58,438 bases of DNA from a virus. A model generated the notes under the pieces. The model did not search any database. It was given only the letters and a program-made list of their open reading frames with translations, and was not told where the DNA came from. This document shows, one piece after another, positions 8,245-52,999 of the stretch (the stretch's first letter is position 1; each line of letters begins with the position of its first letter). The stretch is taken from the IMG/VR virus record IMGVR_UViG_3300034031_000030, positions 1-58,438 of that record; one strand, written 5' to 3'. A program made the position numbers and the translations under genes.

Positions 8245-8733
8245 ATGGCCACCAAGACTTTTTACGAACTTCTCGAAATCTCTCCGTCAGCTTCCCAGGA
8301 CGAAATCAAGGAAAGCTATCGTTTTCTGACAGCCGCATTTCACCCCGACAAGCATACCGAAGCAAACAGGCAGCGGGCCGAATCGATAATGAAGTCCTTG
8401 AACGAAGCCTACTCCGTCCTTTCCGACGCTGATAAGCGGCGCGTGTATGATGCAAGCCAGAAGACTTCCACTCAATCCAGTGATCCATTGTCGAACCTAT
8501 ACCGAACGGATTTTCCTGATTCGAAGGTAGATGCGAATGAAATGCTCGACGTTGAGGGAACGACCCTACAGGTTCGGGGCAGCGTGTATTACGCTGCGTG
8601 CCGCCTGGTGCTCAACAACCAGATAGTCGCTGCCACGAAGCACATTTACGACCACGTACCCGGCATACGGCTCGTGGAAGCGAGAGATGTGGTCCATGCC
8701 ATTCAAGAGGAAATACGGAAGAAGAAACGATGA
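8245..8733 (+). CDS. J-domain (DnaJ-like) protein
   Basis: FYELLEISPSASQDEIKESYRFLTAAFHPDKH...NEAYSVLSDADKRRVYD contains the HPD tripeptide. The C-terminal tail IVAATKHIYDHVPGIRLVEARDVVHAI resembles the L7/L12 C-terminal motif (weak). Confidence 0.85.
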   Translation: MATKTFYELLEISPSASQDEIKESYRFLTAAFHPDKHTEANRQRAESIMKSLNEAYSVLSDADKRRVYDASQKTSTQSSDPLSNLYRTDFPDSKVDANEMLDVEGTTLQVRGSVYYAACRLVLNNQIVAATKHIYDHVPGIRLVEARDVVHAIQEEIRKKKR

Positions 8734-8745
8734 ACCTGGCTCACA
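8731..8745. repeat. Class II palindrome, degenerate copy (TGAACCTGGCTCACA) overlapping the J-domain gene stop codon
   Basis: One mismatch to the TGAACCTGGTTCACA core. Confidence 0.6.
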
Positions 8746-8762
8746 AAATCCCGCTATATTTT

Positions 8763-8792
8763 TTTACAGAAATTTGTGAAATCGAATATAAT
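8763..8792 (+). promoter_or_regulatory. Sigma70-like promoter candidate (TTTACA-N18-TATAAT)
   Basis: The hexamers were read directly. It lies about 40 nt upstream of the 8833 start. The host sigma specificity is unknown. Confidence 0.4.
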
Positions 8793-8832
8793 GCCAGTAC
8801 CGAATCCAGCAAACAGTTATTGAGGAATTCCG

Positions 8833-9659: not shown

Positions 9660-10844
9660 ATGAGCGTAATTTCTGACCGACAACGCAAAAAGGGTTCTCC
9701 GCGCCATTTTTCGCCAACGCGGTTGACTGTGGCGCGTGAGCGGCGCGGCCTGAACAAGAAGACTCTGGCCGATCTTGTGGGCCTGACGCCAGACGCTATC
9801 ACGAAATTTGAGGCCGATCAGTGCCAACCGCTGCCCGAAACACTGCAGCGCTTTAGTTTTGCGCTGCAGTTTCCGCTCGGCTGGTTCAGCGCCAGCGAGA
9901 TCGATTTGCTCGACCCGAAGAGTCTGAGCTTCCGCTCCCGGAGGTCGATGACAGCGGAGATCCGGGGCAAGGCAACGCGGGCAGGGGATATCGCCGTCAG
10001 TGTCATCACGCCCGAGCTGCACCGGCGCTTCGTTCTGCCCGATCCCGCGGTTCCTGACTTGTCCGACTTCGGACCGGAGCACGCCGCTGAGTTATTGCGC
10101 CGCGAGTGGAAGCTGGGAGCCGGTCCCATCGAAAACATGGTTCACCTGCTCGAAGCTAAAGGCGTTCATACCTACTGGATGCGCGAAGAATCTCCGTTGC
10201 TTAATGCCTGGTCGATGTGGCACGGAGAGCGGCCCTTCGTGATGCTCAACATCTTCAACAACGCCGGCTGCCGGGCTCGCTTCGACGCCGCGCATGAACT
10301 CGCACATCTCGTGCTACACCGCGACTCTGTTGTGGAAGGTTTGCAGATGGAAAACGAGGCGAATCTCTTTGCAGCTGCTTTTCTTCTTCCTGAAGATCAG
10401 TTCCGCTATGAATGCCCGAAATACCCGATCCTGCACGCCTTCTATCCACTTAAAGGCCGCTGGGGCGTTTCGATCCAGGCGATGATTATGCGCTGCAAGT
10501 CGCTGGGTATCTTCAGCGATTGGGACACGCGCCGCGCGTTTCAGGAAATCACCTCCCGTGGCTGGAAGAAAGCAGAGCCAAAAGAACTGGCGATCAAGCG
10601 CGAAGAATCCCGTTTGCAAAAAATGATTGCGACCAGGCTCGAAGCGAAAAACATCAATGCTTCAGGACTGGCCAAAGAGCTTCACATTACTTCTGCCGAT
10701 TTGCTCGACCAAATGCCGTTTCTCGAACCATACGTTGAGCCGCAGCAAAAAGAAGTGACCAAAAGCGAAGGCAGTGAAGATCATGCAATCCAGCAGACTG
10801 AGGAGAAGCGTTCAAAGGCCACCCATTTGCGTCTACTTGCCTGA
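9660..10844 (+). CDS. Fused XRE-family HTH / ImmA-IrrE (M78, COG2856) zinc metallopeptidase
   Basis: N-terminal HTH (LTVARERRGLNKKTLADLVGLTPDAITKFE). HEXXH motif in FDAAHELAHLVLH. An additional ~110-aa C-terminal region follows. Confidence 0.85.
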   Translation: MSVISDRQRKKGSPRHFSPTRLTVARERRGLNKKTLADLVGLTPDAITKFEADQCQPLPETLQRFSFALQFPLGWFSASEIDLLDPKSLSFRSRRSMTAEIRGKATRAGDIAVSVITPELHRRFVLPDPAVPDLSDFGPEHAAELLRREWKLGAGPIENMVHLLEAKGVHTYWMREESPLLNAWSMWHGERPFVMLNIFNNAGCRARFDAAHELAHLVLHRDSVVEGLQMENEANLFAAAFLLPEDQFRYECPKYPILHAFYPLKGRWGVSIQAMIMRCKSLGIFSDWDTRRAFQEITSRGWKKAEPKELAIKREESRLQKMIATRLEAKNINASGLAKELHITSADLLDQMPFLEPYVEPQQKEVTKSEGSEDHAIQQTEEKRSKATHLRLLA

Positions 10845-10874: not shown

Positions 10875-10915
10875 GAGTACGGTCGAATTCGACTCATCGA
10901 CGATCGACCGTACTC
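10875..10915. terminator. Class I palindromic element with an expanded loop
   Basis: GAGTACGGTCGAATTCGA-ctcatcgacga-TCGACCGTACTC, flanked by an A-run and followed by a T-run. Confidence 0.55.
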
Positions 10916-11640: not shown

Positions 11641-11675
11641 AAAAGAGTACGGTCGAATCCGACCGTACTCTTTTT
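11641..11675. terminator. Class I palindromic element; bidirectional terminator candidate
   Basis: AAAAGAGTACGGTCGAATCCGACCGTACTCTTTTT lies between convergent genes. Confidence 0.7.
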
Positions 11676-11711
11676 ATTTCGGTTTCGGGATGACGAAAGG
11701 TGCGTTAGCGA

Positions 11712-13669: not shown

Positions 13670-13695
13670 AAGTACGGTCGAAATCGACCGCACTT
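13670..13695. terminator. Class I palindromic element
   Basis: AAGTACGGTCGAAATCGACCGCACTT followed by TTTGC. Confidence 0.5.
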
Positions 13696-13728
13696 TTGCT
13701 GCTGCACCAAGATCGTCATAATTGGCTC

Positions 13729-14103
13729 ATGGCTAATTATGGACAGTGCAATAAGTGTGGCGAAAGTAACCCTTATACGGCGGTTATTTGTAAAGGATGC
13801 AATTCGCGTCTTCCATGGGCACAAGCAGCTAAAACCGCACAACAGATCGGGAATGCCCCGACGCGCCCGTTGCCCCCAACACAGCCGACCGCTCCCCTTC
13901 CATCACAACCTCCAGTTTCTGTCCCGTCAATTTTTGCGTCACGCGCTCATAAATCGGAGGAAAGAACGCCCGTTGTCGTTCAGCAAGGAGGCTGTCTTTC
14001 CGGGCTAGGTATGGGTATGGGAGCTGGCGTCGGCTGCTGCTGCCTCGCGCCGATCCTGCTCTTCGTCTCATTCGTCCTTCTTGCAGCTATTGGTGCCCGA
14101 TGA
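13729..14103 (+). CDS. Zinc-ribbon protein with a Pro-rich linker and a C-terminal transmembrane anchor
   Basis: CNKCG...CKGCN. PTRPLPPTQPTAPLPSQPP linker. C-terminal GVGCCCLAPILLFVSFVLLAAIG. Confidence 0.6.
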   Translation: MANYGQCNKCGESNPYTAVICKGCNSRLPWAQAAKTAQQIGNAPTRPLPPTQPTAPLPSQPPVSVPSIFASRAHKSEERTPVVVQQGGCLSGLGMGMGAGVGCCCLAPILLFVSFVLLAAIGAR

Positions 14104-14130
14104 AAGTACGGTCGAAATCGACCGTACTTT
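14103..14130. terminator. Class I palindromic element
   Basis: AAAGTACGGTCGAAATCGACCGTACTTT overlaps the stop codon of 13729..14103, between convergent genes. Confidence 0.65.
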
Positions 14131-14158
14131 CGGTCTGTGCGTCTATTTAGCAGCCACT

Positions 14159-14537: not shown

Positions 14538-16520
14538 TTAGGCTACGCGTCGTGCTGCACCAGTTTCATTTTCGAGTGCAGCCATTTCTGCAATTCGCTG
14601 GTCGATCGCTGCCGGGTCTTCCTCGTAGGCGATAGCACGCATTTCTTCGCGCGTCTTCTTTTCAACGGCTTCGCTGTCTGGATTGCGACGGACACGATCG
14701 CGCCAGAAGTCATCTGCAGTCATTCGCGCGAGAGCATCGCATTCGTAAGTCTCGCGCTCATCTTCGCTGAGATTAGCGATATACCAGTCACACGCGGTAT
14801 CCATACGCTTTTGATCGAGGCTGATTGCAGCATCTCCCAGGCGTGCTGATTCAGTCTTAGGCTGTGCCTGTTTGCGCTGTAAGGCCTGCTGTGCCGCTTT
14901 TTCCCGTTCTTCCTCTGGTTGGTTCAGGTAAGCCTCTCGCTGCACGTCCGCGACGATTTCTCGTACCCAGGTGTCTGGAGGCTCTTGTTGGTGCAGTATG
15001 CGAGTGATGAGTGCCCCGGCCGGTGTGAGGTTTTTCTCGCTTGGATCACGACGGCGATTGTACTCGTCGCAGTACTCCTGTTTGGATTCTGGCCAGTGGT
15101 GCCAGAAAACCAATTGCCATCGCGCGTTCATCGCATACCCTTCGACGATCTGTTTCATTTTTGCCGACTGGCGCCCGATGCCAAGTCGGCCCAGCCGCGC
15201 ACGGAGCGCCTGGTCAGACAATCCCGCCTCGCTCCAGGTAGCAGCGCGCCGCCGGGCCATTTCTAGTGTGAGAACTTCAGGCGCTAGCTCATAAAGTCGA
15301 GTGGCGAGAAATTCTATTGTCGGTGACGTTTCACCTGGATCACTTGTAATTACCGCAGGCAAGGCGCCTTCGTCTTCTTCATATCGAGGTGGGCGCGGTG
15401 AACGTGGTTCATGTGACGATTGTGGAAAGGGTGGTAGGGTTGCGCTATCAGGCGTGGATACAGATTCATTAGAATCCACAACAACAGCAAGGGGGGCCTG
15501 GTGTTGTTTATGAGAAACTTCGTTTTCTGTACCACTCTTTTGTACAGATGATAATGAGGTCAAATCTACCCCACATACGAGGTCATTTTGACCCTGTATG
15601 TCAGGGATGACTGCCCCCACCCCCTGTAAATCTGCCCCCACCTCCGGTTCTCCAGTTCCTTGAAATACCGGGGCGGGGGAAATTTGACCCCGCCCCCGTT
15701 CTATGGCCCGCCGCACGTCAGATTTTTCGTAATGTTTGCGCCCTGGAATCCACCCGTCTTCGGTTAATTCTTTGATTTTCTGAGCATGACGTTGCTGATA
15801 CTCCTCCAGCAATTCCTGCTCGCGCGCATCACCGAGGGCATTGCCAGAAAGGCGTGCTTCCCAGCGCTCGTTTTGCACCTGGTCGAGCGCTTCCTGATAG
15901 AGCCCCGTCAATGGATCGAGCACTTCGCTAACGACGTGATACCAATTGACGTTATCGCCCTTTTCAGTGTTAAGGTCTGCCGTCCAGATCACACCTTGCT
16001 TCCGGCAGCTCCCCAACTTCTTCTTGTAGGTTTCCCGATGAATGTGCCGCAGCTTTCCTGACCACGGATTGAACATCAAGCCTGGTGGAATTCGGACGTA
16101 AAGCCGATCTTCAAATTTTTTAAATTTGAATTCAAGATCTAACAACAGGTCGCGGTAAGGATGGTTGCGCCAATAAACAATCTGCTGAATGATGTCTGCT
16201 TCGTCATCACCGAAGACTGCCTTTAGCCCCGGCTGGACTTGCATAAAAGGTTCGTTTAGCACCAGGCTATTTTGAGAATTATTGAACTGCCTTTCCCGTG
16301 GATGTGGAATCGGTGTCATGCCGTCCCCTTTGTTCCGATCACTTTGATACTGTTTAAAAAATGGCCGTTCAAGATCCCGTGTAGGGCCACTGAAACTTGG
16401 GGTGCCAACAGAATCAGAAGGGATGCCAGAAATGGCCGGCGTGAGGCCCGACCGCCCATGTTGGAAGAGCGATGCGCAAGCAGCAGCAACGACGCGAAGC
16501 GACGACGCGAAAGAAAACAT
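14538..16520 (-). CDS. Large hypothetical protein; candidate replication initiator by position only
   Basis: A 660-codon ORF downstream of parAB. It has two structured halves joined by a low-complexity linker whose DNA (15555-15700) is dense in short repeats. The start is uncertain (alternative Met at residue 67). Confidence 0.4.
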   Translation of the reverse strand: MFSFASSLRVVAAACASLFQHGRSGLTPAISGIPSDSVGTPSFSGPTRDLERPFFKQYQSDRNKGDGMTPIPHPRERQFNNSQNSLVLNEPFMQVQPGLKAVFGDDEADIIQQIVYWRNHPYRDLLLDLEFKFKKFEDRLYVRIPPGLMFNPWSGKLRHIHRETYKKKLGSCRKQGVIWTADLNTEKGDNVNWYHVVSEVLDPLTGLYQEALDQVQNERWEARLSGNALGDAREQELLEEYQQRHAQKIKELTEDGWIPGRKHYEKSDVRRAIERGRGQISPAPVFQGTGEPEVGADLQGVGAVIPDIQGQNDLVCGVDLTSLSSVQKSGTENEVSHKQHQAPLAVVVDSNESVSTPDSATLPPFPQSSHEPRSPRPPRYEEDEGALPAVITSDPGETSPTIEFLATRLYELAPEVLTLEMARRRAATWSEAGLSDQALRARLGRLGIGRQSAKMKQIVEGYAMNARWQLVFWHHWPESKQEYCDEYNRRRDPSEKNLTPAGALITRILHQQEPPDTWVREIVADVQREAYLNQPEEEREKAAQQALQRKQAQPKTESARLGDAAISLDQKRMDTACDWYIANLSEDERETYECDALARMTADDFWRDRVRRNPDSEAVEKKTREEMRAIAYEEDPAAIDQRIAEMAALENETGAARRVA

Positions 16521-16711: not shown

Positions 16712-17986
16712 TTAAAGTGCTTTCATCGCTGATGTCCAGCTTTTAATGTGCGACTGCATTTGCAACTTCAGAGCTTCTCGTTCCGTTTCGGTCATGGACT
16801 TAGCCGAACTTGTAACGAGACTGCAAACGTAATTTACGTTCGGGTCGATCGCTTTCAGTTGCTTGGCAGCCTTCACGAAAACCTTACTTCCACCCACACC
16901 TTTCGTGCCTGACCCGGAAGCCCCCCCCGCACGTTTCTTCTGGCCCTGTGTATCTCCACCGCCCGTGTCGCTCGATGTGCCGCTGGCAGGTGCAGCGGAT
17001 TCGGATGTTCCCTCCCCGGTCGCCGGCACCAGCGAGAGATGAGTCCCCTGCCCTGCTGCAACGGCTGAACGGTTCGCATCGATCGCGGCCTGGCTGCTGG
17101 CAGCCTGCGCGGCCTTCTGAGATTCCTGAGCTACAACATCATCGAGGGTCGGCTGATTTTGCCGCAACTTATCGCGGTAGAACAAAGCGTGCTTCATCGA
17201 CTCGTTGCCGCTCCAGCCTTCTTGGACGATTTGATGGAAGAACTTTCGTTGTTCATCCGGGTAATCTTTCAGTTCCAGCAGGGCACGCCCGTGCCGTTCG
17301 TTCAGGCTCGGGGGATTGCCGGCACCGTCAGACTCCATTTCTTCGCGGATGTATTCGGGCAGTTCGAGCAAATCCACGAGCTGCTTTAGGCGCCGGTAGC
17401 TCAGGCCGCCGATACGCTTGGAAACCTCTTGCCATGTCGGTGGTTTTTCTCCGATGTCACGGGCAACTTTCTTCAGCTCGTTGTAAAGCGCTAAAAACGC
17501 TCGCGCGCGGTCAAGAATCGGCGGATCGACGCGGTTCTCGTTTTCTTCGAGCGCGAGAATGCGCATTTCCAAATCGGACAATGGCTCGACAAGGGTAAGT
17601 AATTTCCCGTGGTAATTCTCTGGATTTTGACGATTGCTACCAGCGTTGCCACCAGCGAGAACCGTGTACTTTCGCCGGTGGCCAAAGGCGCACTGATAAC
17701 GCCCGGCGAGTTCCGGGTCTTTGGCCACCGCATCCTCGGCGTACGGTCGAACCTTCGCCGGCTCTTGCTGGCCATGCTCATTAAACGAAGCGACCATGCT
17801 TTCAATGTCGAACGGATTGTAGTTCGTCCGGTATTGATACGGATTGTCATCAATCCGGGCCACGTCAATCCACACGGCTTCAACTGCAGGAGTTGGCGAA
17901 GGTGGGGTTCTAAGGGGAAACAATTTATTGAGCCGCGACTCACGCTCGGCTGCTGGCGTGATGGACTTCACTGCTTTTAATTTCAT
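16712..17986 (-). CDS. parB: ParB-family partition protein
   Basis: ParB/Srx N-domain with the GHRR motif (YQCAFGHRRKYTVLAG). ATGA overlap with parA. Ser/Gly-rich low-complexity C-terminal half. Confidence 0.85.
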   Translation of the reverse strand: MKLKAVKSITPAAERESRLNKLFPLRTPPSPTPAVEAVWIDVARIDDNPYQYRTNYNPFDIESMVASFNEHGQQEPAKVRPYAEDAVAKDPELAGRYQCAFGHRRKYTVLAGGNAGSNRQNPENYHGKLLTLVEPLSDLEMRILALEENENRVDPPILDRARAFLALYNELKKVARDIGEKPPTWQEVSKRIGGLSYRRLKQLVDLLELPEYIREEMESDGAGNPPSLNERHGRALLELKDYPDEQRKFFHQIVQEGWSGNESMKHALFYRDKLRQNQPTLDDVVAQESQKAAQAASSQAAIDANRSAVAAGQGTHLSLVPATGEGTSESAAPASGTSSDTGGGDTQGQKKRAGGASGSGTKGVGGSKVFVKAAKQLKAIDPNVNYVCSLVTSSAKSMTETEREALKLQMQSHIKSWTSAMKAL

Positions 17987-18627: not shown

Positions 18628-18842
18628 GCGCTCACCTCGTCGAGCGATATCCCAGCGCGTTTGGCGAGTTGCTCGAAATTCGCACGCGTCGCGTGTGTGC
18701 GTGGCATCCGCGCCTGCGCTTCACATTTTGTGACCGTAGAAAGCGAGCTGCAAAGCTGGCGCGCGAATTCCTCCTGCGTCAAGCCTAAAGCGGTGCGAAC
18801 TTCTTTCATGAAATTTCGAGGCGAATCTACAGACTTTTTCAT
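18624..18842 (-). CDS. XRE-family HTH regulator, first gene of the parAB operon
   Basis: LGLTQEEFARQLCSSLSTVTKCE helix-turn-helix. ATGA overlap with parA. Confidence 0.8.
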   Translation of the reverse strand: MKKSVDSPRNFMKEVRTALGLTQEEFARQLCSSLSTVTKCEAQARMPRTHATRANFEQLAKRAGISLDEVSA

Positions 18843-22481: not shown

Positions 22482-22487
22482 AAGATT

Positions 22488-43800: not shown

Positions 43801-43813
43801 CGGCGCCGCTAGG

Positions 43814-43832
43814 AAATGAACTTGGTTCACAT
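43814..43832. repeat. Class II palindrome, degenerate (aaATGAACTTGGTTCACAT)
   Basis: The right arm is perfect; the left arm has mismatches. Followed by TTTAGAA. Confidence 0.6.
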
Positions 43833-43846
43833 TTTAGAAGGACATT

Positions 43847-44023
43847 ATGGCTATTGAAAAACGCACTGTTGACGGGAATGAAATCGAGTGGGACATCGAG
43901 CTTAACGGCGCGGCAATCCGCATCGAGCAGGACAACGACCGCAAGCCCAAAGCGCCGGCTGGAGAGAAACCGGCCGAAGGTTCCGCGCCTGTGAAGGCCA
44001 CGAAGAAATCCAATGGAAGCTGA
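43847..44023 (+). CDS. Hypothetical 58-aa protein (below the ORF-track cutoff)
   Basis: ATG follows GAAGGA. Overlaps the next start by 11 nt. Confidence 0.4.
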   Translation: MAIEKRTVDGNEIEWDIELNGAAIRIEQDNDRKPKAPAGEKPAEGSAPVKATKKSNGS

Positions 44024-44555
44024 GACTCCCAACCCGACGCTCGAAGAACTGCGTCTCGCTGGAGCCATTGTAAATGGCAATCTCGCCGCGGCCGAGGAAG
44101 AGATGGTGCGCCGTCTCAAAGCCTTGCTTCCGGCGGCGATCGTCGATTACAACGCGGAGAAAGGCTTGACGGGCAACCACGCCGTGCCGCCGATCACCGG
44201 CGTGGATATCTCGCCCACAGTATTGGTCGATGGCCACATTGGAAAAGTGCTCATTAAAACGAGTCTCACAACCGAAACCAGTGGCGGCGGCACTTTTAAG
44301 AACTCGGTTAACGTCGAGATTTTTTGGGTCAACGAACGCATCACACGCTCCAAGCAATCAACAACCGCTTGGCATCAGGCCGAGGTTATTGCCCGTTGCC
44401 TGTATTGGTTTCTCAACGGCGTTGTCAACGCGAATGGTGTGAAAGCCTGGCGCCAACTTATCCCAAATGGCTTCTCGCGCATGGAAGGAGAATGGGCCAA
44501 GGACTTCTCCGGGACCAACACCAAATTTTTCATGGTTCTAGCGCGCGGGCAGTAA
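44013..44555 (+). CDS. Hypothetical neck / tail-terminator candidate
   Basis: Position only. Confidence 0.5.
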   Translation: MEAETPNPTLEELRLAGAIVNGNLAAAEEEMVRRLKALLPAAIVDYNAEKGLTGNHAVPPITGVDISPTVLVDGHIGKVLIKTSLTTETSGGGTFKNSVNVEIFWVNERITRSKQSTTAWHQAEVIARCLYWFLNGVVNANGVKAWRQLIPNGFSRMEGEWAKDFSGTNTKFFMVLARGQ

Positions 44556-44579
44556 ACAGCGCATAAAAGCTCGATGGCG

Positions 44580-44620
44580 GAGTACGGTCGAAATCGAGCA
44601 TTCCAAATCCGACCGTACTT
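44580..44620. terminator. Class I palindromic element with an expanded loop
   Basis: GAGTACGGTCGAAATCGA-gcattccaaa-TCCGACCGTACTT followed by TTATTTT. Confidence 0.6.
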
Positions 44621-44630
44621 TTATTTTGAA

Positions 44631-44649
44631 ATGTGAACCTGGTTCAGAT
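44631..44649. repeat. Class II palindrome (ATGTGAACCTGGTTCAGAT)
   Basis: One mismatch. Confidence 0.85.
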
Positions 44650-44673
44650 CCGGTTTGCAGTGGGATATGAATT

Positions 44674-45654
44674 ATGGATTTTGAAAGCTCAACAGATGCC
44701 TTCGTCGGATTCGCCGTCGAAAGCGGCCCGATCGTCGAAAGTGCCGATGGAATGACGCCGGCCACTTTGCCTGCCCTGCCCGGCTCGCTGACTCTTTGCG
44801 GCATTACGCCGATCCCCGAGCGCCGCCGTGGACTCAACAACTCCTACGGCTTCACGACCGGCCAAGCCGCCGGCGCTTACGCCAAATGGGGTACGCAGAC
44901 GCCCGGACTCACCATCGTGATCCGTGGCGGCGGCGCATTGTCGCTTCTCGAAAAAGCGAATCGAGTCAGCGGCGAACTGCCGAACCTGATTTTCTTTGTC
45001 GGCGTGCCCGGCGTCTGGACCGAAGTTTTTCGCTTCTCGAAAATCAACATTATCGCTTTCAACCTGCGGGAGTCTCCCCAGGGTGAAGCGGCAGAGATTG
45101 AGATCACGCTCACGATCGAATCGTTGGCGTTTGAGGTTCTCAGCGTCCCGCTCAACCCCTCTCTTCCGACGTTGATCGCGGCTCTGTCCGCGCCGATGTT
45201 CTGGCATGATGTTCGGAGCTTCACCATCGCCAACAGCGCCGGTGTCGTGACCGACTTCCGCCAACGTGCGTTGATGGGCGCAACCGCGCAGGCGTCACAC
45301 AGCCTGGAGCGCAAGGGTGAGCGCAACGATTGGGGGCATGATGAGCCTCTTTCGCGCACGAACTTCGAGCTGCTCGAACATAACATCGTCGTGACTGGAA
45401 ATCTGCAGCTTCACACTCGAATTGCAGAAGCCTTTCTCTCGACGGGTAAGAAGTCTCAGAAATGGGGCAACGCGGCGTTTATGATTTCGGATGCTCCGGC
45501 TCTCGACGCTGGCGGAAACCAGATCCTCGTCACGCTTCTCAAGGCGATTCCCCAGGATGTCACCGGCGCGGCCACAGAGCCGGGCGCGCAGCTTTCCCAC
45601 GCAATTCCGTTCCTCGCGTCTAATTTCACCGTCGCTGCGGGCGCTGCCGCGTAG
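44674..45654 (+). CDS. Putative major tail tube protein
   Basis: A 326-aa ORF immediately upstream of the chaperone and tape-measure genes. No sheath-sized gene is present. Confidence 0.5.
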   Translation: MDFESSTDAFVGFAVESGPIVESADGMTPATLPALPGSLTLCGITPIPERRRGLNNSYGFTTGQAAGAYAKWGTQTPGLTIVIRGGGALSLLEKANRVSGELPNLIFFVGVPGVWTEVFRFSKINIIAFNLRESPQGEAAEIEITLTIESLAFEVLSVPLNPSLPTLIAALSAPMFWHDVRSFTIANSAGVVTDFRQRALMGATAQASHSLERKGERNDWGHDEPLSRTNFELLEHNIVVTGNLQLHTRIAEAFLSTGKKSQKWGNAAFMISDAPALDAGGNQILVTLLKAIPQDVTGAATEPGAQLSHAIPFLASNFTVAAGAAA

Positions 45655-45666
45655 TCGTTCTTATCC

Positions 45667-45698
45667 GAGGAGTACGGTCGAATTCGACCGTACTCCTC
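45667..45698. terminator. Class I palindromic element, perfect 32 bp
   Basis: GAGGAGTACGGTCGAATTCGACCGTACTCCTC. Confidence 0.6.
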
Positions 45699-45716
45699 CT
45701 GTCGAAGTAAACGCAG

Positions 45717-45735
45717 ATATGAACCTGGTTCACAT
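45717..45735. repeat. Class II palindrome (ATATGAACCTGGTTCACAT)
   Basis: One mismatch. TTTAGAA lies 7 nt downstream. Confidence 0.85.
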
Positions 45736-45770
45736 CTCAAATTTAGAAACGAAGTTTTCCCTGGAGAAAT

Positions 45771-46298
45771 ATGGAAGCGACGACGCTTAGCATCAACCCT
45801 TTGACCAAGCAGTATGAAGAAAGCGCTGCGCCGAATGCTGAAGGCATCGTCTGGCGCAAATCCGCGTTTCGTGACGAGCGCGGCCCCGGCATCTATCACC
45901 TCGATATTCCTGTAGCCGGCGGAACCCTTTACGCCGTCGAACTCAATGACGATGAATTTGAAGAGTATCTGGCGATCGCCAAGCATCTCGGCGAATCGAC
46001 CCGCAAAATGATTGCGGTCGAAGCCCAAGCGAAGGATCTCGAAGAAGCGGACAAGCATAAAGAAGCCCAAGACCTTCGCGCGTCGGTCGATAGCGAAGCA
46101 ACTGCTTGCATCCAGGGCGAACGCGACATCAAGAACTGGCTTTTTGAAAAAACGCTTGTCGGCTGGAGCTTCAAACGTCCTTTCTCCTTGAAAGCATTTT
46201 GCGGTCTGTCGAGTAGCGAACAAAGCAAGGCGTCGCAGAAAATCGCTGATGCCTGTAACGTCGGACGCGAAACGGATTTTTTAGCCGCCGTTTCCTGA
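45771..46298 (+). CDS. Tail assembly chaperone (lambda G-like, zero-frame product)
   Basis: Position directly upstream of the tape measure. It ends just after the slippery heptamer T_TTT_TTA. Confidence 0.7.
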   Translation: MEATTLSINPLTKQYEESAAPNAEGIVWRKSAFRDERGPGIYHLDIPVAGGTLYAVELNDDEFEEYLAIAKHLGESTRKMIAVEAQAKDLEEADKHKEAQDLRASVDSEATACIQGERDIKNWLFEKTLVGWSFKRPFSLKAFCGLSSSEQSKASQKIADACNVGRETDFLAAVS

Positions 46299-46522
46299 AG
46301 ACGCTCGAAGGCCAAAGCGGCCCGACAGGCACGCCCGATCAGGAGCGTTTTTTCGAGAAGCTATGGAAAGACTTCTGGCTTCTTGAAGGCGCGCCGAACG
46401 CGATTTCAGGAATAGGGAAAAGCCGCCGCTGGCAGGAAGGTATCAGCGTTTTTGCTTTCACCCTTAAGCGGCACGAGCTGTCGCTTCAACAACGTCTGCT
46501 CGATGCGTGGACGAAAAAATGA
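45771..46522 (+). CDS. Tail assembly chaperone -1 frameshift product (lambda GT-like)
   Basis: Heptamer T_TTT_TTA at 46277-46283 in the zero-frame register GAT TTT TTA. The -1 frame is open for 79 further sense codons up to the TGA at 46520-46522, and there is no ATG in that frame. Confidence 0.65.
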
Positions 46523-46523
46523 G

Positions 46524-46588
46524 TGCGGTCGAATATCAACTATCTATCAATTCGAAAAAAACTGATAGATAGTTGATATTCGACCGCA
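46524..46588. terminator. Class I-related long hairpin (26-bp perfect stem)
   Basis: TGCGGTCGAATATCAACTATCTATCA - 13-nt loop - TGATAGATAGTTGATATTCGACCGCA. Confidence 0.65.
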
Positions 46589-46600
46589 TACCGATTTCAG

Positions 46601-46619
46601 ATGTGAACCAGGTTCACAT
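46601..46619. repeat. Class II palindrome, perfect (ATGTGAACCAGGTTCACAT)
   Basis: Read directly. Confidence 0.95.
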
Positions 46620-46757
46620 TCTTGGTGCGAGAGCCTCACGGTGCAGCAGCGCCCCAGAACCAGAGGGCACCGACGACCAGCAAAGCCACACTCAAGAACG
46701 TGCCCGCAAACGCGCCAAAAACAAACTGTTTCATGGCGATGAAAAGGGGCTATTGCA

Positions 46758-48899
46758 ATGCCAAATACTCCCATTCCCGCCAATGCTTCTGCCGCCGCAC
46801 TCCCGACGCCGACACAACCAGCGGCGCTCACGATGCTGGCGAACGTGCTTGAACGCAGCCTTACCAAAGCCTTTGTTTCGAAAGCATTCTCCAACGCGGT
46901 AAATCCCGGACGATCCGTTTCGTCTGTTGGCACGAGTCCACTCGGCCAATTTTTGTCGCAGATTCAGTCCCGTGCCTCCCAGCCTTTAGTCCAACTCGGG
47001 CAACAGCGTGCCGGTATCAGTCGCTCCGTCAAGACGCTTTTCAGCGCGCCACCTTCTACACACTCTGTGGTTTCCGTGGGCAGCACAGTGCTGAATCGTT
47101 TTCTGACGCAAACCCAGGCCCGCACGTCACAACCAGTGACCCAAGTCACGCAAAGCCACGCGCAGTTGCTCACAGGCATCAATCGCTCCGTGCAGGCCTT
47201 AAATGACCGCTGGCGCCTCGCAGGGCAGGGCAGGGACGCAATGGGGCGAGTCACCGGAATAAACAGCCCGGTTGGGCGCGTTGCACAAACCGTGGGGCTG
47301 GGACCGGCTTATCGCACGGGCCGCACGGCGCTGCAGCAGCACGTCACGCCTCACCTCACCTCTGGCTCGGCTCATCTGTCCAGCTTGTTTGCCGGTGCGC
47401 GCAGTTCGCTTCAAAACATCGGCACCCGCTGGAACCAGAGCGGGCAGCAGCGTGATGCTCAGGGCCGTTTTCTGGGTAATCAGCCGAACTTCGGTTCGCG
47501 CGTGTTTCAGACGATGGGCCTCGGCGATTTATATAACGCCGGGCGCAGTGCCTCTGGAACCGGTGGTGGTGCAGTGGCAGCCGGTGGAGCCGCTCTCAGC
47601 TTCTTGACCAATCGAAGCGGTGGCGGCGGGCTCCTCGGTTTAATTCTCGCGCCGGTAAAAATCGCTGCCGGCATTTTTGCCGGTGCGCTTGCCGTCGGCT
47701 CGGGCGCCCTGTTTTTGTTCGTTCGAAGCGTCCAGGGGATGACGCGAGAGATGGTCCAGGTCGCACGCGAAATCACAGCGATCCGTAACAACACCGGGCG
47801 TGGCATCGGCGACTCGATGAAGGGCTACTTCGGCCTTCGTGCTGCGGGATTCTCCGGCGCGTCTGCGTCGGGCTTTCTGTCGCAGGCCGGACCGCTCGGT
47901 GACGCACGATCGCGCGCCTGGAACCTGCCATCGATGACCGATCCGGGCTTCGCGCTGCGCCTGGCCGAAAAGAGCCAGGGCATGAGCTTTTTTGGCCGTA
48001 AAGCGATGCTGGAAAGCATCAGCGGCGGTCAGGCTTCGCCCGAATTGCTCCAGCTCGCCAACTCGCGTCCCGAGTCCATCAAGCGTGAACAGGGATTTCT
48101 TGCGCGGACGCAGAATGCGCTCGGCGTCACGCCGGAAGCGATTCGTCGTTTGTCCGACGAGTGGCCGCTCTTTCAGAACCGCGTATCGATGTTCACCGAA
48201 ACCGTAAAGATGCGTTTCATCTCCTCGATGCTTCCTTTGATGGAGCAGGGGATGGACCGTCTTTCGGTTGTCCTCGAAAGCAACTCCGGGCGCATCAGCA
48301 AAGCGATCGAAAATGGCACGCGCTGGCTTTACGTTGATTTGCCCGGTCATCTGGTGACGGGCGCCCGCGTCGGGCTAAATGCCATCGAGATGATTTCGGA
48401 AGGCTTCTTCAATTTTGCGGACGGCCTTGCCGGTTTCTTGCGCGCGATCGGGGAAGGGCAGAGCGGGCTGTTTTCTTTCTTCGAGTTCATCGGCAGCGTC
48501 ATCGACTCGATGATGGCCAGTGCAAAGTTCTTGGGCTTGACCGACAAACAGACCGACATCGCCGGCGATATGCAGAACTGGCGGAACTCCGGCACTCCTG
48601 AAAACTTGGCGAAGAACATCGAAGCCTTCACCCAGTCCGGGCGCGATAAGACGGGCAGCGCCCTCGATTGGGCGCGCGGCGTTCTAGACGAAACGGATAA
48701 GTTCCTTGGCTCACGCGATCAGCGCGACGCTGATTTCTCATCGAGTCTGAAGGAATTGACGGCTGCCACAAAAGATGGTCATGCAAAAATCGTCGGCGCG
48801 ATCGAGAAAACCAATGAAAGTGGACAGGGCACCGACAGCGTTTTGCAGGCTCTCAAAGGCCACATTGGAAAGGAATCGTTTATTGTGGCTTCTCGCTAG
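46758..48899 (+). CDS. Tail tape measure protein
   Basis: 713 aa, positioned after the chaperone frameshift pair. It has internal sequence repeats and a central hydrophobic Gly-rich block (GGGLLGLILAPVKIAAGIFAGALAVGSGALFLF). Confidence 0.85.
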   Translation: MPNTPIPANASAAALPTPTQPAALTMLANVLERSLTKAFVSKAFSNAVNPGRSVSSVGTSPLGQFLSQIQSRASQPLVQLGQQRAGISRSVKTLFSAPPSTHSVVSVGSTVLNRFLTQTQARTSQPVTQVTQSHAQLLTGINRSVQALNDRWRLAGQGRDAMGRVTGINSPVGRVAQTVGLGPAYRTGRTALQQHVTPHLTSGSAHLSSLFAGARSSLQNIGTRWNQSGQQRDAQGRFLGNQPNFGSRVFQTMGLGDLYNAGRSASGTGGGAVAAGGAALSFLTNRSGGGGLLGLILAPVKIAAGIFAGALAVGSGALFLFVRSVQGMTREMVQVAREITAIRNNTGRGIGDSMKGYFGLRAAGFSGASASGFLSQAGPLGDARSRAWNLPSMTDPGFALRLAEKSQGMSFFGRKAMLESISGGQASPELLQLANSRPESIKREQGFLARTQNALGVTPEAIRRLSDEWPLFQNRVSMFTETVKMRFISSMLPLMEQGMDRLSVVLESNSGRISKAIENGTRWLYVDLPGHLVTGARVGLNAIEMISEGFFNFADGLAGFLRAIGEGQSGLFSFFEFIGSVIDSMMASAKFLGLTDKQTDIAGDMQNWRNSGTPENLAKNIEAFTQSGRDKTGSALDWARGVLDETDKFLGSRDQRDADFSSSLKELTAATKDGHAKIVGAIEKTNESGQGTDSVLQALKGHIGKESFIVASR

Positions 48900-48925
48900 A
48901 GTACGGTCAAAATCGACCGTACTCT
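48898..48925. terminator. Class I palindromic element
   Basis: AGAGTACGGTCAAAATCGACCGTACTCT overlaps the tape-measure stop codon. Confidence 0.6.
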
Positions 48926-48933
48926 GTCTCCAA

Positions 48934-48952
48934 TTATGAACCTGGTTCACAT
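48934..48952. repeat. Class II palindrome (TTATGAACCTGGTTCACAT)
   Basis: The right arm is perfect. Directly followed by TTAGAAG. Confidence 0.85.
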
Positions 48953-48970
48953 TTAGAAGACCCGAACGAA

Positions 48971-50344
48971 ATGGCATACACAACATTTGAATCTATCGGT
49001 GGCGGTGAGAATGGCACAGAAATCGGCGAATTGCCGATCGAAGATATCGCCGAAGCTCTGGCCTACCGCAAAGCCCTCGAAGTGCAGGTGTTTCTCGATC
49101 CGGGCGACTTTGGCGTGTCCTTCAAGGATCTCACCGGCCGCTGGCGCGTGCGCGTTCGCCTCAACGGAAACCGCGACTCAACCGGCGCTTACACCGCTCC
49201 AATCATCTTCGAGCAGACAATCGAATGGACCGCGCGCGTCTTCGCCCTGGCCTTAGGCGGCGGCCTCACTCTCGTTACCTGGCAGCCGCTCGGTGACGGT
49301 GGATCAGGAAAGCAACAAACCTCGATTGTCGCCGGGCAGGCTTGCGCTGTCGTCGATGATGTCAATGACCTGGCGCAAATGGCGGCCTATGGCGCGACCG
49401 GCGCCTGGCGTTTTCTCGACACGGTTTCGTTTCTCCCGACCGCAACGCCGCGCCACAAATTCGACGCGGAAAAGGGCTTCACTATTTTTACGGCCGAAGG
49501 CGCGGCTACGGTCGGCGGCTACAGCTTTCACGCGGTTTATCAAAGCCCTTATTACCGCTACGAAGCCCCGAATAGGAGCATCCTCGAAACGGTTTTCGAC
49601 AACTGGCAAAGCTCCCTCCTCACCGAAGCGCGCTACACCGTTTCACAGCGCAAAGGCGCAAGCGGCGAGGCGTTGCTCTTCGACGAGCGCACCGGCGCGC
49701 ACTGGAGATTATTCGTAGATCGGCTTGTTGGCACCAGCCGCCTGCAGATCATCCGGTCACGCCAGGTGCGCGGCGTGCTGGAACGAACCGACACCCAGTT
49801 CGGGCAGGGGATAAGCCTCGAAACAGAAAAACTCGATGACGGCGATAACGGTGTGCTCGAAACCGACACCCGGCTGCGCGGCATTCAACTCAAGCGGTTG
49901 CCCGGAGGCGCGATGATCGCCGTCGGCGCGACTGGCGGGCAGGGTTCCCTGCTCCGGGCATTTGTGACAACCGACGAAGGCGAAAACTGGGAGCGAGTGA
50001 TGAATCAACTATTAAACATTAACCCTCTGGCAATGTGCGTTTTGAAAGACGCCGCGCGAATGCTGGTTTACGGCACGAACGAGCAGGGCAATGCCGCCTA
50101 CTCGCTTTTGTCATTTGGCAAAGTAACGCTCGACGATGGCAGCGAAGACAACGGCTGGCGCGCGGTCGAGGGTGGCACCGTGACCGGGCCTGCGGGTGTC
50201 ACAATGCCGACACGAAATGTGAGCCTCACGATTGGTGATGGTGGTGTGGTGCGCCTACTTTCGCGCGATGCAACGGCGGGCACGTTGTTGACCTTGATCT
50301 CGCGTGACAGCGGAAAGAGTTACGAAAAAGAGGCAACCTCCTGA
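48971..50344 (+). CDS. Distal tail protein candidate with BNR/Asp-box-like motifs
   Basis: TTDEGENWERV and SRDSGKSYEK fit S/T-x-D-x-G-x-x-W/Y. Positioned after the tape measure. Confidence 0.55.
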   Translation: MAYTTFESIGGGENGTEIGELPIEDIAEALAYRKALEVQVFLDPGDFGVSFKDLTGRWRVRVRLNGNRDSTGAYTAPIIFEQTIEWTARVFALALGGGLTLVTWQPLGDGGSGKQQTSIVAGQACAVVDDVNDLAQMAAYGATGAWRFLDTVSFLPTATPRHKFDAEKGFTIFTAEGAATVGGYSFHAVYQSPYYRYEAPNRSILETVFDNWQSSLLTEARYTVSQRKGASGEALLFDERTGAHWRLFVDRLVGTSRLQIIRSRQVRGVLERTDTQFGQGISLETEKLDDGDNGVLETDTRLRGIQLKRLPGGAMIAVGATGGQGSLLRAFVTTDEGENWERVMNQLLNINPLAMCVLKDAARMLVYGTNEQGNAAYSLLSFGKVTLDDGSEDNGWRAVEGGTVTGPAGVTMPTRNVSLTIGDGGVVRLLSRDATAGTLLTLISRDSGKSYEKEATS

Positions 50345-52878
50345 TGAATCCAGTTCTCGAAGCTCAACATGGCAATCTGCGCGTCCTGATCTGGCCGGTT
50401 GACCCTGATGCCGCGTTTCGCCGTCCCTGCGCCCTGTTAGAGAATTACGCCGGCTTTTTGCTGCCTGACCGCGGCGAATCTCAGGGCGATGCTCTGGGAC
50501 TGCCGGACTCGTTTACTTCACTGGAGTGGCAGGGGCAGCAATATCTCGAAGAAGTGACCGGACCGCTCGAATGGGTTCGCTTCGCGCCTGGTGGCGTTCT
50601 CGAAAAAGGTGTTCGCCGCGCCGCTATTTCGAAGCCGCAAAACGAGCTGTGTGGCTGGACGGTGCGACCGCTGTTGACGCGTTTGCATTCACGGATCACC
50701 AACGAAGCAGCGCCGTTGCCTGGCTCTCCTAACTACGATCTACGCCCGCGTCTTCCGGCGGGTGAAGTCGTCGATTGGAAAGGCGTGCAGGGCGAGTCGT
50801 GGGAAAGCCTGTTGCCCGCAACGCATCCGTTGTGGGGTGGAATCCGTCATCGAGAGGCGCCTGCGAATCGCACTGTCAAAGCGGCCACTGAAAAGCCGTG
50901 GCTCAAAGATGCGGCGATCGCCGTCGAGTTCGATTTCGACGGCGTTGCCTGGGGTCACGAAGGAGATCCGGCCCTGCGTTTCGAGTGGGGCGGCAACTAT
51001 TCGTTTCTTTTGCGCGGGCTGGGTGCGCGTGCCAGGCCCGTTGTCGAGCGCCGGGCCGCTGGGCCAAGTGGCAAGCTCGATTGGCGTCCGTGGCGCACGC
51101 TCGACGACGCAGCTCCCCTGGATGCAAAATTCTGGTCGAGCCGCCACGTCGTTCTGATTTACCGGCTCGCCGGATGGCTGGTGGTAGAAATCGATGGCAC
51201 GGCAGTCTGGATCGGTGATGTCAAAGATGGCGGCTTCAAGCCCGTCCAATGGAAGGCCGCTCCGCTTCGCTTATCGGTCGTCGGCGTCGATGTGAGCCTG
51301 CGCCTCGCGGAACTCGATTGCAGCCGTCCTGCCGGCTTCAAAAGAGAGGCGTCGGTATCAAGCGCACCTTCATTTCCGCAAAACCTGATTGTTCGTGGAA
51401 CCCGCGTTCTGCGCAAAGGCGCCGGAGCGCTACAGACACGGGCCGCCATGCACGGTACCAATTTGGAGAAAACCAAGATCGTGGCCGACTGGATCAACGC
51501 CGGTGGCGAAGGTCGTGTCGATTACGAAGCGACGCTTCAGGGCACTAAATCTTCGCCGCCGTTGCTGTGCTCCTTTGCGGCCCAGTTCCCACCTACCGCG
51601 CCCTCTGAGCCGCTGCCACCCGTGGATATACGACCGGCTCTTGAATCGGTGTCTGTCGAAACTGGCGACGCCGAAACCCTGCCCAGTGCCGAAGCCCGGA
51701 TGCAGATCTCTATCGCCATGCTGGAGCGCCATGTTCCCGGATGGCAGTCCGCCGTCCTTCCGTTTCGACCGGTTCTGATTCAGAGTGACGAACAGAAGAC
51801 CGGCCAATGGAAAGACGAATTCTTTGGCTATCTATTGCCCGATGGCGCCGCAGCCAGTGGATTCAACGACGCCAGTATCAGTTGCATCGCGCGTGACCCC
51901 AAACTCAAGGTGCGCGAACCGGCGGCCCTGGTAGATGGACGCTTTGCCCCTCTCGACCTGCATCTTGATGATGATGGGGGAGATATCTACGGCTGCCAGT
52001 GCGCGCAGAAGCTGCTCGGGCTGGAACTCGGGCCGGAAGTCGTGACGACATTCAACGGCAACGGCGATCCTTTTCGTTATCTACAGCCTGGACATTACCC
52101 GCTGCAAAGTTCTTCAGGCGTGGATTATTTCACCGCAACTGAGGTTCCGTCTCAAGGCGGATTTCGACTCCCTCCTCCTTTTGGAGAGGATATCGAAAAG
52201 TGGATAAAACGGCTGGAAGGTTTCGACCACGCCGTATGCTTTCACGATGTCGCCGAAGGCCCAGACAACGGAAGCGATGACCTCGGAAGCAGCCGGATGA
52301 GAGGAGCTTTTATTTACGGCCACGTTGAGATGCTCTTTGCAGCGCGCGACGCCATTTACGAGCTGCACTCATCGACTGCCGGCGCAAATATGGGAGATAG
52401 CCTCAACGTATGGCCACTGCTGTCCCGGATGAGCGCGCAAGGTCTGTTAGAAAGCGCTTTCACTCGCGTGCAAGTATGGGGTGTGGCGTCCGAAGCCGAC
52501 GCGCAATTTGTTCCTTCGCTGTTTGTCGGTTCCTACAAACCCCGCAACGACCTTTCTTCTCTCGACCCACTTTCCGAAGTCCAGTCGTGGCCGCGCACCT
52601 TTCTGCTTCGCCAAGAGTTCATCGGGCGCTCGACCGCGCTACAGGATTACGCTGACGCCCTGGCCTTTTCGATCTGGAGTGAGTTCGGAGGACGTGCTCC
52701 TGAGCGCTGGGAGTTCACGCTCGAAGATCAAATTCTGCCGGCGCGCTGGGGCGAAAAGCTGCTCTTCGCCGACAAAGAGTTGCGCGTGGTTCACGTTCGA
52801 AAGTCTTGGACATTCGGCGTGGGATCGAAGCGTTCAACATCGATCACCGCGCGATCACTATCCGCGCGAGGTCTGTAG
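50344..52878 (+). CDS. Large tail tip / hub candidate
   Basis: 844 aa, TGATGA-coupled to the preceding gene. Function inferred from position only. Confidence 0.55.
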   Translation: MNPVLEAQHGNLRVLIWPVDPDAAFRRPCALLENYAGFLLPDRGESQGDALGLPDSFTSLEWQGQQYLEEVTGPLEWVRFAPGGVLEKGVRRAAISKPQNELCGWTVRPLLTRLHSRITNEAAPLPGSPNYDLRPRLPAGEVVDWKGVQGESWESLLPATHPLWGGIRHREAPANRTVKAATEKPWLKDAAIAVEFDFDGVAWGHEGDPALRFEWGGNYSFLLRGLGARARPVVERRAAGPSGKLDWRPWRTLDDAAPLDAKFWSSRHVVLIYRLAGWLVVEIDGTAVWIGDVKDGGFKPVQWKAAPLRLSVVGVDVSLRLAELDCSRPAGFKREASVSSAPSFPQNLIVRGTRVLRKGAGALQTRAAMHGTNLEKTKIVADWINAGGEGRVDYEATLQGTKSSPPLLCSFAAQFPPTAPSEPLPPVDIRPALESVSVETGDAETLPSAEARMQISIAMLERHVPGWQSAVLPFRPVLIQSDEQKTGQWKDEFFGYLLPDGAAASGFNDASISCIARDPKLKVREPAALVDGRFAPLDLHLDDDGGDIYGCQCAQKLLGLELGPEVVTTFNGNGDPFRYLQPGHYPLQSSSGVDYFTATEVPSQGGFRLPPPFGEDIEKWIKRLEGFDHAVCFHDVAEGPDNGSDDLGSSRMRGAFIYGHVEMLFAARDAIYELHSSTAGANMGDSLNVWPLLSRMSAQGLLESAFTRVQVWGVASEADAQFVPSLFVGSYKPRNDLSSLDPLSEVQSWPRTFLLRQEFIGRSTALQDYADALAFSIWSEFGGRAPERWEFTLEDQILPARWGEKLLFADKELRVVHVRKSWTFGVGSKRSTSITARSLSARGL

Positions 52879-52963
52879 CCGGGAGAGCCGCTAAAAACTC
52901 AGATTGCCGTGCGCGATTTTCAGGTGTCTCGCCGTGACACAATGAATGGGACAATTTTTCAGA

Positions 52964-52982
52964 ATGTGAACCAGGTTCACAT
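52964..52982. repeat. Class II palindrome, perfect, plus an extra half-site GTTCACAT at 52987-52994
   Basis: ATGTGAACCAGGTTCACATtttcGTTCACAT. Confidence 0.95.
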
Positions 52983-52999
52983 TTTCGTTCACATTTCCC

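Follow-up and report, generated by a model that had tools for sequence, protein, structure and literature searches.

Phage N15 carries four dispersed centromere repeats (GTGCGACC-NN-GGTCGCAC, IR1-IR4) that are the sites of SopB (PMC7205306). KorB of plasmid RK2 is a ParB-family CTP clamp and a long-range repressor (PMC11790492). In cluster A mycobacteriophages such as L5 and Bxb1, stoperators occur in many copies in the short gaps of the lytic operons and have been proposed to silence the prophage (PMC9283540), and in P1 a conserved element dependent on the phage activator Lpa lies ahead of each of several late operons (PMC8198154). Here we describe a short palindrome, the class II palindrome, that recurs in the gaps of the head-tail operon of the phage in IMG/VR record IMGVR_UViG_3300034031_000030. 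The whole record, 58,438 nucleotides, was analyzed and is called the window. We consider the possibility that the palindromes are dispersed sites for the phage's own ParB.

Dispersed centromere and operator systems are known, and the present arrangement is a variant of them that is denser and confined to one operon. Like N15, this phage encodes ParA and ParB, is probably maintained as a plasmid, has no repeat array beside its par genes, and has perfect palindromes of ~18-19 bp scattered in its genome (GTGCGACC-NN-GGTCGCAC in N15 and TGTGAACC-W-GGTTCACA here; PMC7205306). In contrast to N15, with its four sites and 2-bp centre, there are 9-12 sites with a 1-bp centre, and these are packed into 15 kb of the head-tail operon, near start codons. 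In addition, the ParB of this phage is nearer to chromosomal ParB and Noc than to SopB, no protelomerase was detected in the window, and the genome ends in a direct repeat.

KorB, like the other ParB-CTPase regulators VirB and BisD, is a CTP-dependent clamp that acts at short dispersed palindromes and controls transcription at a distance (PMC11790492), and the class II palindromes resemble this design. However, a profile of the window's ParB clade matched KorB far more weakly than chromosomal ParB/Noc when compared with known structures (E = 7e-12 and 4e-34, respectively), and the regulatory role proposed here is predicted from sequence alone. In RK2, korA precedes incC-korB, and a small helix-turn-helix (HTH) gene similarly precedes parA-parB in the window. 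The KorB operator, OB, is a 13-bp odd-centred site unrelated in sequence to the class II palindrome.

As with stoperators, many copies of one short site occupy short intergenic gaps, and a silencing role is proposed. Stoperators, however, are 13-bp asymmetric sites for a monomeric immunity repressor and function in a single orientation, which follows transcription, whereas the class II site is palindromic and confined to the head-tail genes, and a relative that shares it has a different type of main repressor. Lastly, the Lpa-dependent late promoters of P1 have a palindromic element near -22. Unlike these promoters, the class II palindromes have no -10 hexamer at a fixed distance, and a transcription start about 22 nt from the palindrome centre would delete the ribosome-binding site (Shine-Dalgarno sequence) of at least three genes.

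The palindrome is concentrated in gaps of the head-tail operon

The 19-mer ATGTGAACCWGGTTCACAT has nine matches in the window at up to three mismatches, all within 37572-52982. In dinucleotide-preserving shuffles the expected number was 0.01, and no shuffle reached nine. The 15-mer core, at up to two mismatches, has 12 matches compared with 0.14 expected, adding copies at 8730, 15398 and 21995. The site consists of half-sites TGTGAACC-W-GGTTCACA, and nine copies have the 13-bp core, TGAACCWGGTTCA, without a mismatch. At the centre, four copies have A and seven have T, with no strand bias. Isolated half-sites are not enriched in the window, and the sequence beyond the palindrome is not conserved from copy to copy. 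Avoidance of CCWGG was considered and rejected, as the genome has 139 CCWGG sites. A first-pass annotation made from the letters of the window had listed eleven copies. All are present, at or within 1-5 nt of the positions it gave, and the enrichment that it had left to be calculated is borne out for both the 19-mer and the core.

The placement of the copies is not uniform along the genome. Eight of the 11 intergenic gaps in the 37.5-53 kb head-tail segment contain a copy, compared with two of 25 elsewhere (Fisher p = 2e-4), and the late copies are intergenic in eight of nine cases. For six of the intergenic late copies, the next start codon is 14-35 nt past the end of the palindrome. Their centres are 24, 27, 28, 34, 43 and 45 nt from these start codons, and Shine-Dalgarno-like sequences lie between. 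The usual order in the late operon is a stop codon, a hairpin of a second repeat family (class I, described below), 6-20 nt, the class II palindrome, a ribosome-binding site and a start codon. This order is reversed, with class II before class I, at 21993 and 37572.

The first late copy, at 37572-37590, is perfect. It is part of a 21-bp palindrome (37571-37591), begins 7 nt past the stop codon of a gene for a 169-amino-acid (aa) protein, and has a class I hairpin directly after it. The copy at 39073-39091 (ATCTGAACCTGGTTCACAA) is inside the protease/scaffold gene (37730-39931) and, as previously noted, is read in frame as EPGSQ. At 42018-42052, the class II core is the centre of a perfect palindrome that is followed by TTTAGAA. 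This palindrome had been given as 29 bp from 42021 but is really 35 bp; the core 19-mer occupies 42026-42044, and the next start codon is 33 nt past its end. A degenerate copy at 43814-43832 (AAATGAACTTGGTTCACAT) has TTTAGAA directly after it and ends 14 nt before the start (43847) of a 55-aa gene. Two copies have one mismatch. One (44631-44649) is placed between a class I-type hairpin with a U-tract, 11 nt upstream, and a start codon, 24 nt downstream, and the other (45717-45735) starts 51 nt past the start of the preceding class I hairpin and has TTTAGAA 6 nt downstream. A 65-nt hairpin (46524-46588) lies 12 nt ahead of the perfect copy at 46601-46619, and a 713-aa gene follows 138 nt beyond that copy. 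This copy had been described as the sole exception to close placement, at ~140 nt upstream of the next gene. It is indeed so placed, but the 37572 copy is an exception too, with the protease/scaffold gene starting at 37730. The copy at 48934-48952 has two mismatches and overlaps TTTAGAA; 6 nt separate it from the class I hairpin before it, and 18 nt from the start codon after it. The last copy (52964-52994) combines a perfect 19-mer (52964-52982), ending 17 nt before the next start codon, with a direct repeat of its right arm, GTTCACAT, at 52987-52994; the extra half-site GTTCACA reported at 52987 is thus real.

Three copies are outside the head-tail segment. A degenerate copy at 8728-8746 (CGATGAACCTGGCTCACAA) overlaps the TGA stop codon of the DnaJ-domain gene that follows the integrase gene, and a copy with a perfect 13-bp core at 21993-22011 (GACTGAACCTGGTTCATAT) overlaps another TGA stop codon, with a class I hairpin 3 nt further on. 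These stop codons (8731-8733 and 21996-21998) were correctly reported as the first triplets of the two palindromes. The third, a degenerate copy within the replication-initiator gene (15396-15414, CGGTGAACGTGGTTCATGT), was missing from the earlier list.

The palindromes are probably recognized as duplex DNA

Conservation of the palindrome in the genome goes beyond pairing. The core sequence is invariant, position 3/17 varies without compensation, and two of 14 outer-arm mismatches (as read from the copies) are G-U compatible on the sense strand. The stems are A/T-rich, with folding energies of -4.5 to -13 kcal/mol except at 42018 (-19.7 kcal/mol), and several copies either fold at -4.5 to -6 kcal/mol or have a best fold that bypasses the palindrome. 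Terminator-like sites are not enriched (26 found and 25 expected). Together, the invariant core, the uncompensated arm changes, the poor folds and the lack of enrichment as terminators argue for recognition of duplex DNA by a dimer, and we think it probable that the copies are protein-binding DNA sites in the general sense.

Two other roles are disfavoured. Intrinsic terminators have a stable, G+C-rich stem-loop and a U-tract. A run of 3-5 T does follow four or five of the palindromes, as had been noticed, but this is not general. The hairpins are weak, and several copies lie directly behind a much stronger class I hairpin, all of which counts against the proposal that class II is a second class of terminator. 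The classical promoter reading fares no better. Promoters that depend on sigma-70 or on a late activator have core elements at a fixed distance, and we found no conserved hexamer at a fixed offset from the palindromes and no fixed -10. Sigma-70-like sites are not enriched (six found and 6.1 expected). The centres are so close to the start codons (24-45 nt) that an activator site at -41.5 or further upstream is impossible for most copies. An RNA polymerase domain, as expected if these were T7-like promoters or N4-like hairpin promoters, was not found in the larger open reading frames scanned against Pfam, although a very divergent enzyme could escape such a scan. Based on the proximity to start codons, the lack of a fixed hexamer and the lack of an RNA polymerase, the palindromes most likely lie within the late transcript, away from its start.

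The same site occurs in contigs with no nucleotide similarity to the window

The exact 19-mer was found in seven contigs in one metagenome scan, and in six viral contigs. Two contigs from a single metagenome other than the window's, L076 and L078, each hold two exact copies and have no nucleotide similarity to the window. The copies are at 860 and 10741 in L076, and at 581 and 660 in L078, where a 391-aa gene that looks structural lies upstream of them. L077, which is 1.4 kb long and of uncertain origin, has one exact and extended copy near a glyoxalase gene. In all three contigs the symmetry extends to AAATG...CATTT. The presence of an identical 19-23-mer in an unrelated nucleotide background argues for sequence-specific recognition, beyond mere folding.

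L076 shares with the window ParA, ParB (34% identical), the replication protein and a member of an HTH family that has two members in the window (encoded at 25224-25577 and 37055-37564). The main repressor of L076 is S24/LexA-like, a type absent from the window, yet its palindrome is the same. In contrast, the closest structural relative, L061, whose large terminase is 68% identical, has neither class I nor class II repeats in the 13.9 kb examined. Because the site is in L076 but not in L061, the palindrome travels with the maintenance and regulation module, apart from the structural genes, which suggests that a gene of that module encodes a factor acting in trans. Phages with homologues of the L078 structural protein proved to be unrelated, and the motif is absent from them. 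We also observed that the L076 copies are the inner ends of inverted repeats of ~48 bp (833-880 and 10739-10787, 77-89% complementary) that flank a 9.9-kb segment with parA, parB, the S24 repressor gene and the replication gene.

Scans of IMG/VR with the core gave single chance or coding matches, many of them in collagen-like GEPGSP repeats, and one array. The array, in an unrelated contig of 64% G+C (L038, IMGVR_UViG_3300043331_000544, positions 2436-2515), consists of three 23-bp palindromes, AACGGTGAACCTGGTTCACCGTT, with the same core. It lies between genes for a DnaB helicase and a Nu1-like small terminase and may contain terminase or regulator sites. A literature search for the palindrome sequence returned primers only, and the sequence is new to the searchable literature.

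ParB as the candidate binding protein

The ParB gene (16712-17986, minus strand) belongs to a minus-strand operon that also encodes a small XRE-type HTH protein (18624-18842), ParA (17983-18627) and the replication initiator, with the XRE gene preceding parA and parA preceding parB. ParA and ParB are supported by Pfam and PHROG matches. The CTPase-fold boxes DNPYQYR and GHRR are both present in ParB, and the clade as a whole keeps its CTPase boxes intact, with DNPYQ.R and GHRR invariant. The HTH recognition helix of the window's ParB, SYRRLKQLVDLLELPE, differs from that of chromosomal ParB. The canonical 16-bp parS, TGTTNCACGTGAAACA, has no match in the window at up to three mismatches, and no other repeat cluster or rival centromere candidate was found near parAB. 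It had been argued that the half-sites resemble an everted form of canonical parS. Canonical parS is absent from the window, and the argument is not needed.

Very few relatives of this ParB were found by homology search, and the class II motif co-occurs with this clade. The relatives with close ParB proteins have perfect palindromes that differ in sequence but share one design, with an outer (T)GT, a variable triplet and a central CC-W-GG. They include two copies of a perfect palindrome in L083 (TTGTCACCCTGGGTGACAA), a palindrome 400 nt upstream of parB in L086 (TCGTGCACCAGGTGCACGA), one in L089 (TGACCCTGGGTCA), and a further one in L076 (TTGTGGCCCTGGGCCACAA). Perfect CCWGG-centred palindromes with arms of at least 8 were confined to the close-ParB loci, L077 and L078; there were none in 182 kb of loci with distant ParB proteins and none in 197 kb of control loci.

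The start of the recognition helix groups the loci as the half-sites do. The window (SYRRLKQ) and L076 (TYRRIHQ) both have the half-site TGTGAACC, whereas L089 (GYRQVKR) has TGACCC, L083 (NFQVIGR) has TGTCACCC, and L086 (SRSAVAN) has CGTGCACC; this grouping comprises five loci and is confounded by a shared integrase and lineage. The ParB proteins of L076, L083 and P0004 are about equally identical to that of the window (32-34%), so the resemblance between the helices of the window and L076 does not come from closer overall relatedness. In the other shared HTH family (25224/37055), the helices fail to bring the window and L076 together. The P0004 contig, being short, was uninformative.

We postulate that the class II palindromes are duplex sites for a dimeric, sequence-specific, phage-encoded protein, located inside the head-tail late transcription unit, and that the most likely binding protein is ParB, the CTPase-type HTH protein that this phage encodes together with ParA. 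The sites would then be dispersed, non-canonical parS-like loading sites, as in N15, in a phage kept as a low-copy plasmid. They fill almost every gap of an operon that must be silent in the lysogen, so ParB loaded there probably also silences or insulates the late genes in the manner of KorB. We give this reading as a whole, with ParB binding the motif for partition and perhaps for late-gene silencing, a rough probability of 0.4. The suggestion of parS-like sites had been made in the first-pass annotation, and it gains from the recurrence of the exact 19-mer with a similar ParB helix, from the pairing of other helices with other palindromes, and from the likeness to N15. A fuller picture, in which a ParB-CTP clamp on nine or more palindromes is both centromere binder and late-gene silencer or insulator, as a phage counterpart of KorB in a host that is perhaps a member of the little-studied phylum Abditibacteriota, is rather unlikely to be correct in all its parts.

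Several observations weigh against ParB. The covariation of helix and site comes from five ParB loci only. The same relatives also share an integrase with a CCWGG-centred palindrome directly after its gene (450-468 in L076, 3016-3034 in L083 and 5078-5090 in L089), so the association could be with the integrase or with the lineage. The counterpart in the window, at 8728-8746, follows int-dnaJ, and the sequence of this palindrome differs in each of the four phages. A pure centromere needs neither confinement to the head-tail operon nor proximity to start codons, and parAB is separated by ~20 kb or more from the strongest copies. When the copies are read in the direction of the genes, conservation is higher in the right arm and in the TTTAGAA after it than in the left arm. 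This hints at a directional function, for which a symmetric site for clamp loading offers no explanation. The odd central base is unlike chromosomal parS; the KorB operator is odd-centred too. Lastly, the 25224/37055 HTH family, which is present in L083 as well as L076, offers another possible binding protein.

If ParB does bind these sites, partition and the silencing of late genes would depend, in this phage, on a single protein and a single set of sites, a natural arrangement of which N15, P1 and RK2 each show part only. The comparative pattern also suggests how the specificity of ParB might evolve, with the outer TGT and the central CCWGG constant and the inner triplet shifting with the helix. 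If another regulator binds, the sites still define a compact regulon for an otherwise unannotatable late operon.

Other proteins and other levels of action

A serious rival to ParB, although on balance an unlikely one, is a different late-gene regulator for which the palindromes would be operators. The candidates are the 169-aa protein (37055-37564, plus strand), its weak paralogue encoded at 25224, and the XRE protein. The regulator could be a roadblock or repressor at gene junctions, a palindromic analogue of the stoperator system, or it could help RNA polymerase restart behind the hairpins. Part of its support is positional: the copies are strongly confined to head-tail gaps, in a regular order between hairpin and ribosome-binding site, and the first perfect copy lies just past the 169-aa gene. 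That gene encodes an orphan protein with a weak HTH and heads the palindrome-rich segment, and the family is found in the relatives L076 and L083. Repressor sites are known to populate short intergenic gaps phage-wide in the case of stoperators (PMC9283540), and the late genes of P1 need a dedicated phage activator, Lpa (PMC8198154).

The operator-or-activator site of the first-pass annotation is a serious candidate in its operator form, but the activator or promoter form fits the geometry badly. For the six copies with centres 24-45 nt from a start codon, an activator bound at -41.5 or -61.5 is ruled out. There is no -10-like element at a fixed distance, and a symmetric site is unable to set direction. 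The 39-nt blocks described below are also better candidates for late promoters. Nor do the candidate proteins fit well. The recognition helices of the HTH family do not place the window with L076, a homologue of the XRE protein in L076 is marginal at best (E = 0.003), and the 169-aa protein has zero homologues among 5.8 billion proteins or in IMG/VR. The single-sequence AlphaFold model of the 169-aa protein was unusable (mean predicted local distance difference test score 38).

The palindromes could instead act in RNA, as short hairpins (5-9 bp stem, CWG loop) upstream of each cistron of the polycistronic late mRNA. We can imagine a 5' stabilizer left by processing between the class I and class II hairpins, a target for an RNA-binding protein or nuclease, or a weak terminator or pause site. 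The sites would be transcribed, they are placed between class I hairpins without U-tracts, which lie upstream, and start codons 14-35 nt downstream, and T-runs follow some of them. The right arm and TTTAGAA are strand-biased, and the 42018 copy is a strong hairpin. However, an RNA element is quite improbable given the changes in the outer stem, which are uncompensated and seldom wobble-compatible, the several copies with weak or bypassing folds, the inconsistent U-tracts with no excess of terminator-like sites, and the identity of the 19-23-mer in an unrelated background. Rfam scans of the window gave no match, and some copies, namely 21993 and 37572 of the window and 10741 of L076, come before a terminator hairpin or lie at a gene's 3' end.

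Recombination or mobility is very improbable. The palindromes might be core sites of a tyrosine recombinase, or parts of hairpin-plus-palindrome cassettes that spread among gaps. The palindromes after the integrase genes (or after int-dnaJ) are consistent with this, as are the inverted repeats around the par/rep module of L076. Class I and class II also form composite units, 51 nt from start to start at 44580/44631 and 45666/45717, and reverse-order units with a spacing of 20-22 nt at 21993 and 37572. In contrast, if nine or more sites in one operon were active, essential genes would be deleted or inverted. Tyrosine recombinase sites have asymmetric spacers of 6-8 bp, and the hix and gix crossover sites of serine invertases have inverted half-sites flanking a central dinucleotide (2 bp) and occur in pairs around an invertible segment, whereas class II has just one base at its centre. 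We saw neither target-site duplications nor transposase-like genes, and the sequence around the palindromes is unconserved between copies.

Chance, or inheritance from the repeat content of the host, is hardly credible: although L077 holds its extended copy in a contig of uncertain origin and collagen-like coding repeats can yield the 15-mer core in other phages, shuffled sequences come nowhere near the nine matches observed, the exact site is in so few contigs (seven metagenome and six viral) that it is not an abundant repeat, the late copies are non-coding in eight of nine cases, and the sole host-candidate fragment (L082, 8 kb) has no copies.

Other repeats near the palindromes

The class I hairpins, GAGTACGGTCGAATTCGACCGTACTC, number ~19 copies across the genome and fold at -20 to -28 kcal/mol. 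They include hairpins at 6325-6357, 11641-11678, 13670-13698, 14100-14132, 20864-20896, 22015-22043, 22484-22550, 24033-24065, 37012-37045, 37592-37622, 44580-44619, 45666-45698, 48895-48927 and 54452-54491. Those at the ends of operons carry U-tracts, often on both strands, and most copies internal to the late operon do not. Because of the U-tracts, class I at operon ends looks like a real terminator and appears to fill that role. Class I conserves sequence as well as pairing, which is more than a terminator requires. A variant with a loop insert of ~12-18 nt is found at 10875-10914, at 31571-31610 (inside the portal fusion gene) and at 44580-44619. The 65-nt hairpin at 46524-46588, in the 459-nt gap upstream of the 713-aa gene, has 29-nt arms that are 97% complementary, and its outer stem, GCGGTCGAA...TTCGACCGC, looks like a class I hairpin into which an inner stem has been inserted.

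Two identical 39-nt blocks, at 25811-25849 and 37636-37674, each contain three TGCCGCGC repeats spaced at 11 bp. Each is downstream of one of the weak HTH paralogues (25224-25577 and 37055-37564), and they head the packaging operon and the head-tail operon, respectively. These blocks are likely to be late-promoter or activator sites and are better candidates for that role than class II. The 11-bp repeats are not shared with L076. A related pair, TGCCGTGA, is upstream of the first paralogue (25224), at 25127-25165.

TTTAGAA occurs seven times on the plus strand (13530, 13551, 39955, 42053, 43833, 45742 and 48952) and not at all on the minus strand. It follows four class II copies in the window and one in L078, in gene orientation, at a distance of 0-9 nt. 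Its spacing varies, and we rejected it as a -10 element, as a -10 of the extracytoplasmic function (ECF) type and as a fixed start region. Two occurrences are in tandem upstream of gene 13624, and one, at the capsid gene, separates the ribosome-binding site from the start codon.

The phage and its genome

Bases 1-127 of the window recur exactly at 58312-58438. This 127-bp terminal direct repeat indicates that the window is a complete phage genome, with 58,311 unique bases and 56.7% G+C. An ENA metagenome assembly also contains this contig. As judged from its gene content, the phage is temperate. A tyrosine integrase gene (7062-8240) is followed by the gene for the DnaJ-domain protein. Other genes encode an HTH-M78 protein, a serine resolvase and the small and large terminase subunits, and the SU10-type major capsid gene is at 39961-41304.

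This phage lineage is nearly without relatives. Many proteins of the window have no match, the major capsid protein has no relatives in IMG/VR, and the 37-47 kb part of the window, searched against GenBank phages, gave no nucleotide match. The best protein match among these phages, with ~38% identity, was to the large terminase. Rfam and tRNA scans of the window gave no matches, and another assembly of this phage matches the window at 100% identity over 8 kb and so offers no variation to compare.

The class I repeats offer a hint about the host. The exact 22-mer core of class I has a single match among 185,579 species genomes, at 500-521 of L082 (DASVRI010000020.1). The match is intergenic in an Abditibacteriaceae metagenome-assembled genome of 57.5% G+C, close to the value for the window, and the host lineage may thus be in the Abditibacteriaceae, phylum Abditibacteriota.

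A further protein of the window (2236 aa, 29976-36686) is a portal fused to 2H-phosphoesterase (2'-5' RNA ligase-like), NUDIX and ADP-ribosyltransferase domains, and it may be an injected multi-enzyme protein.

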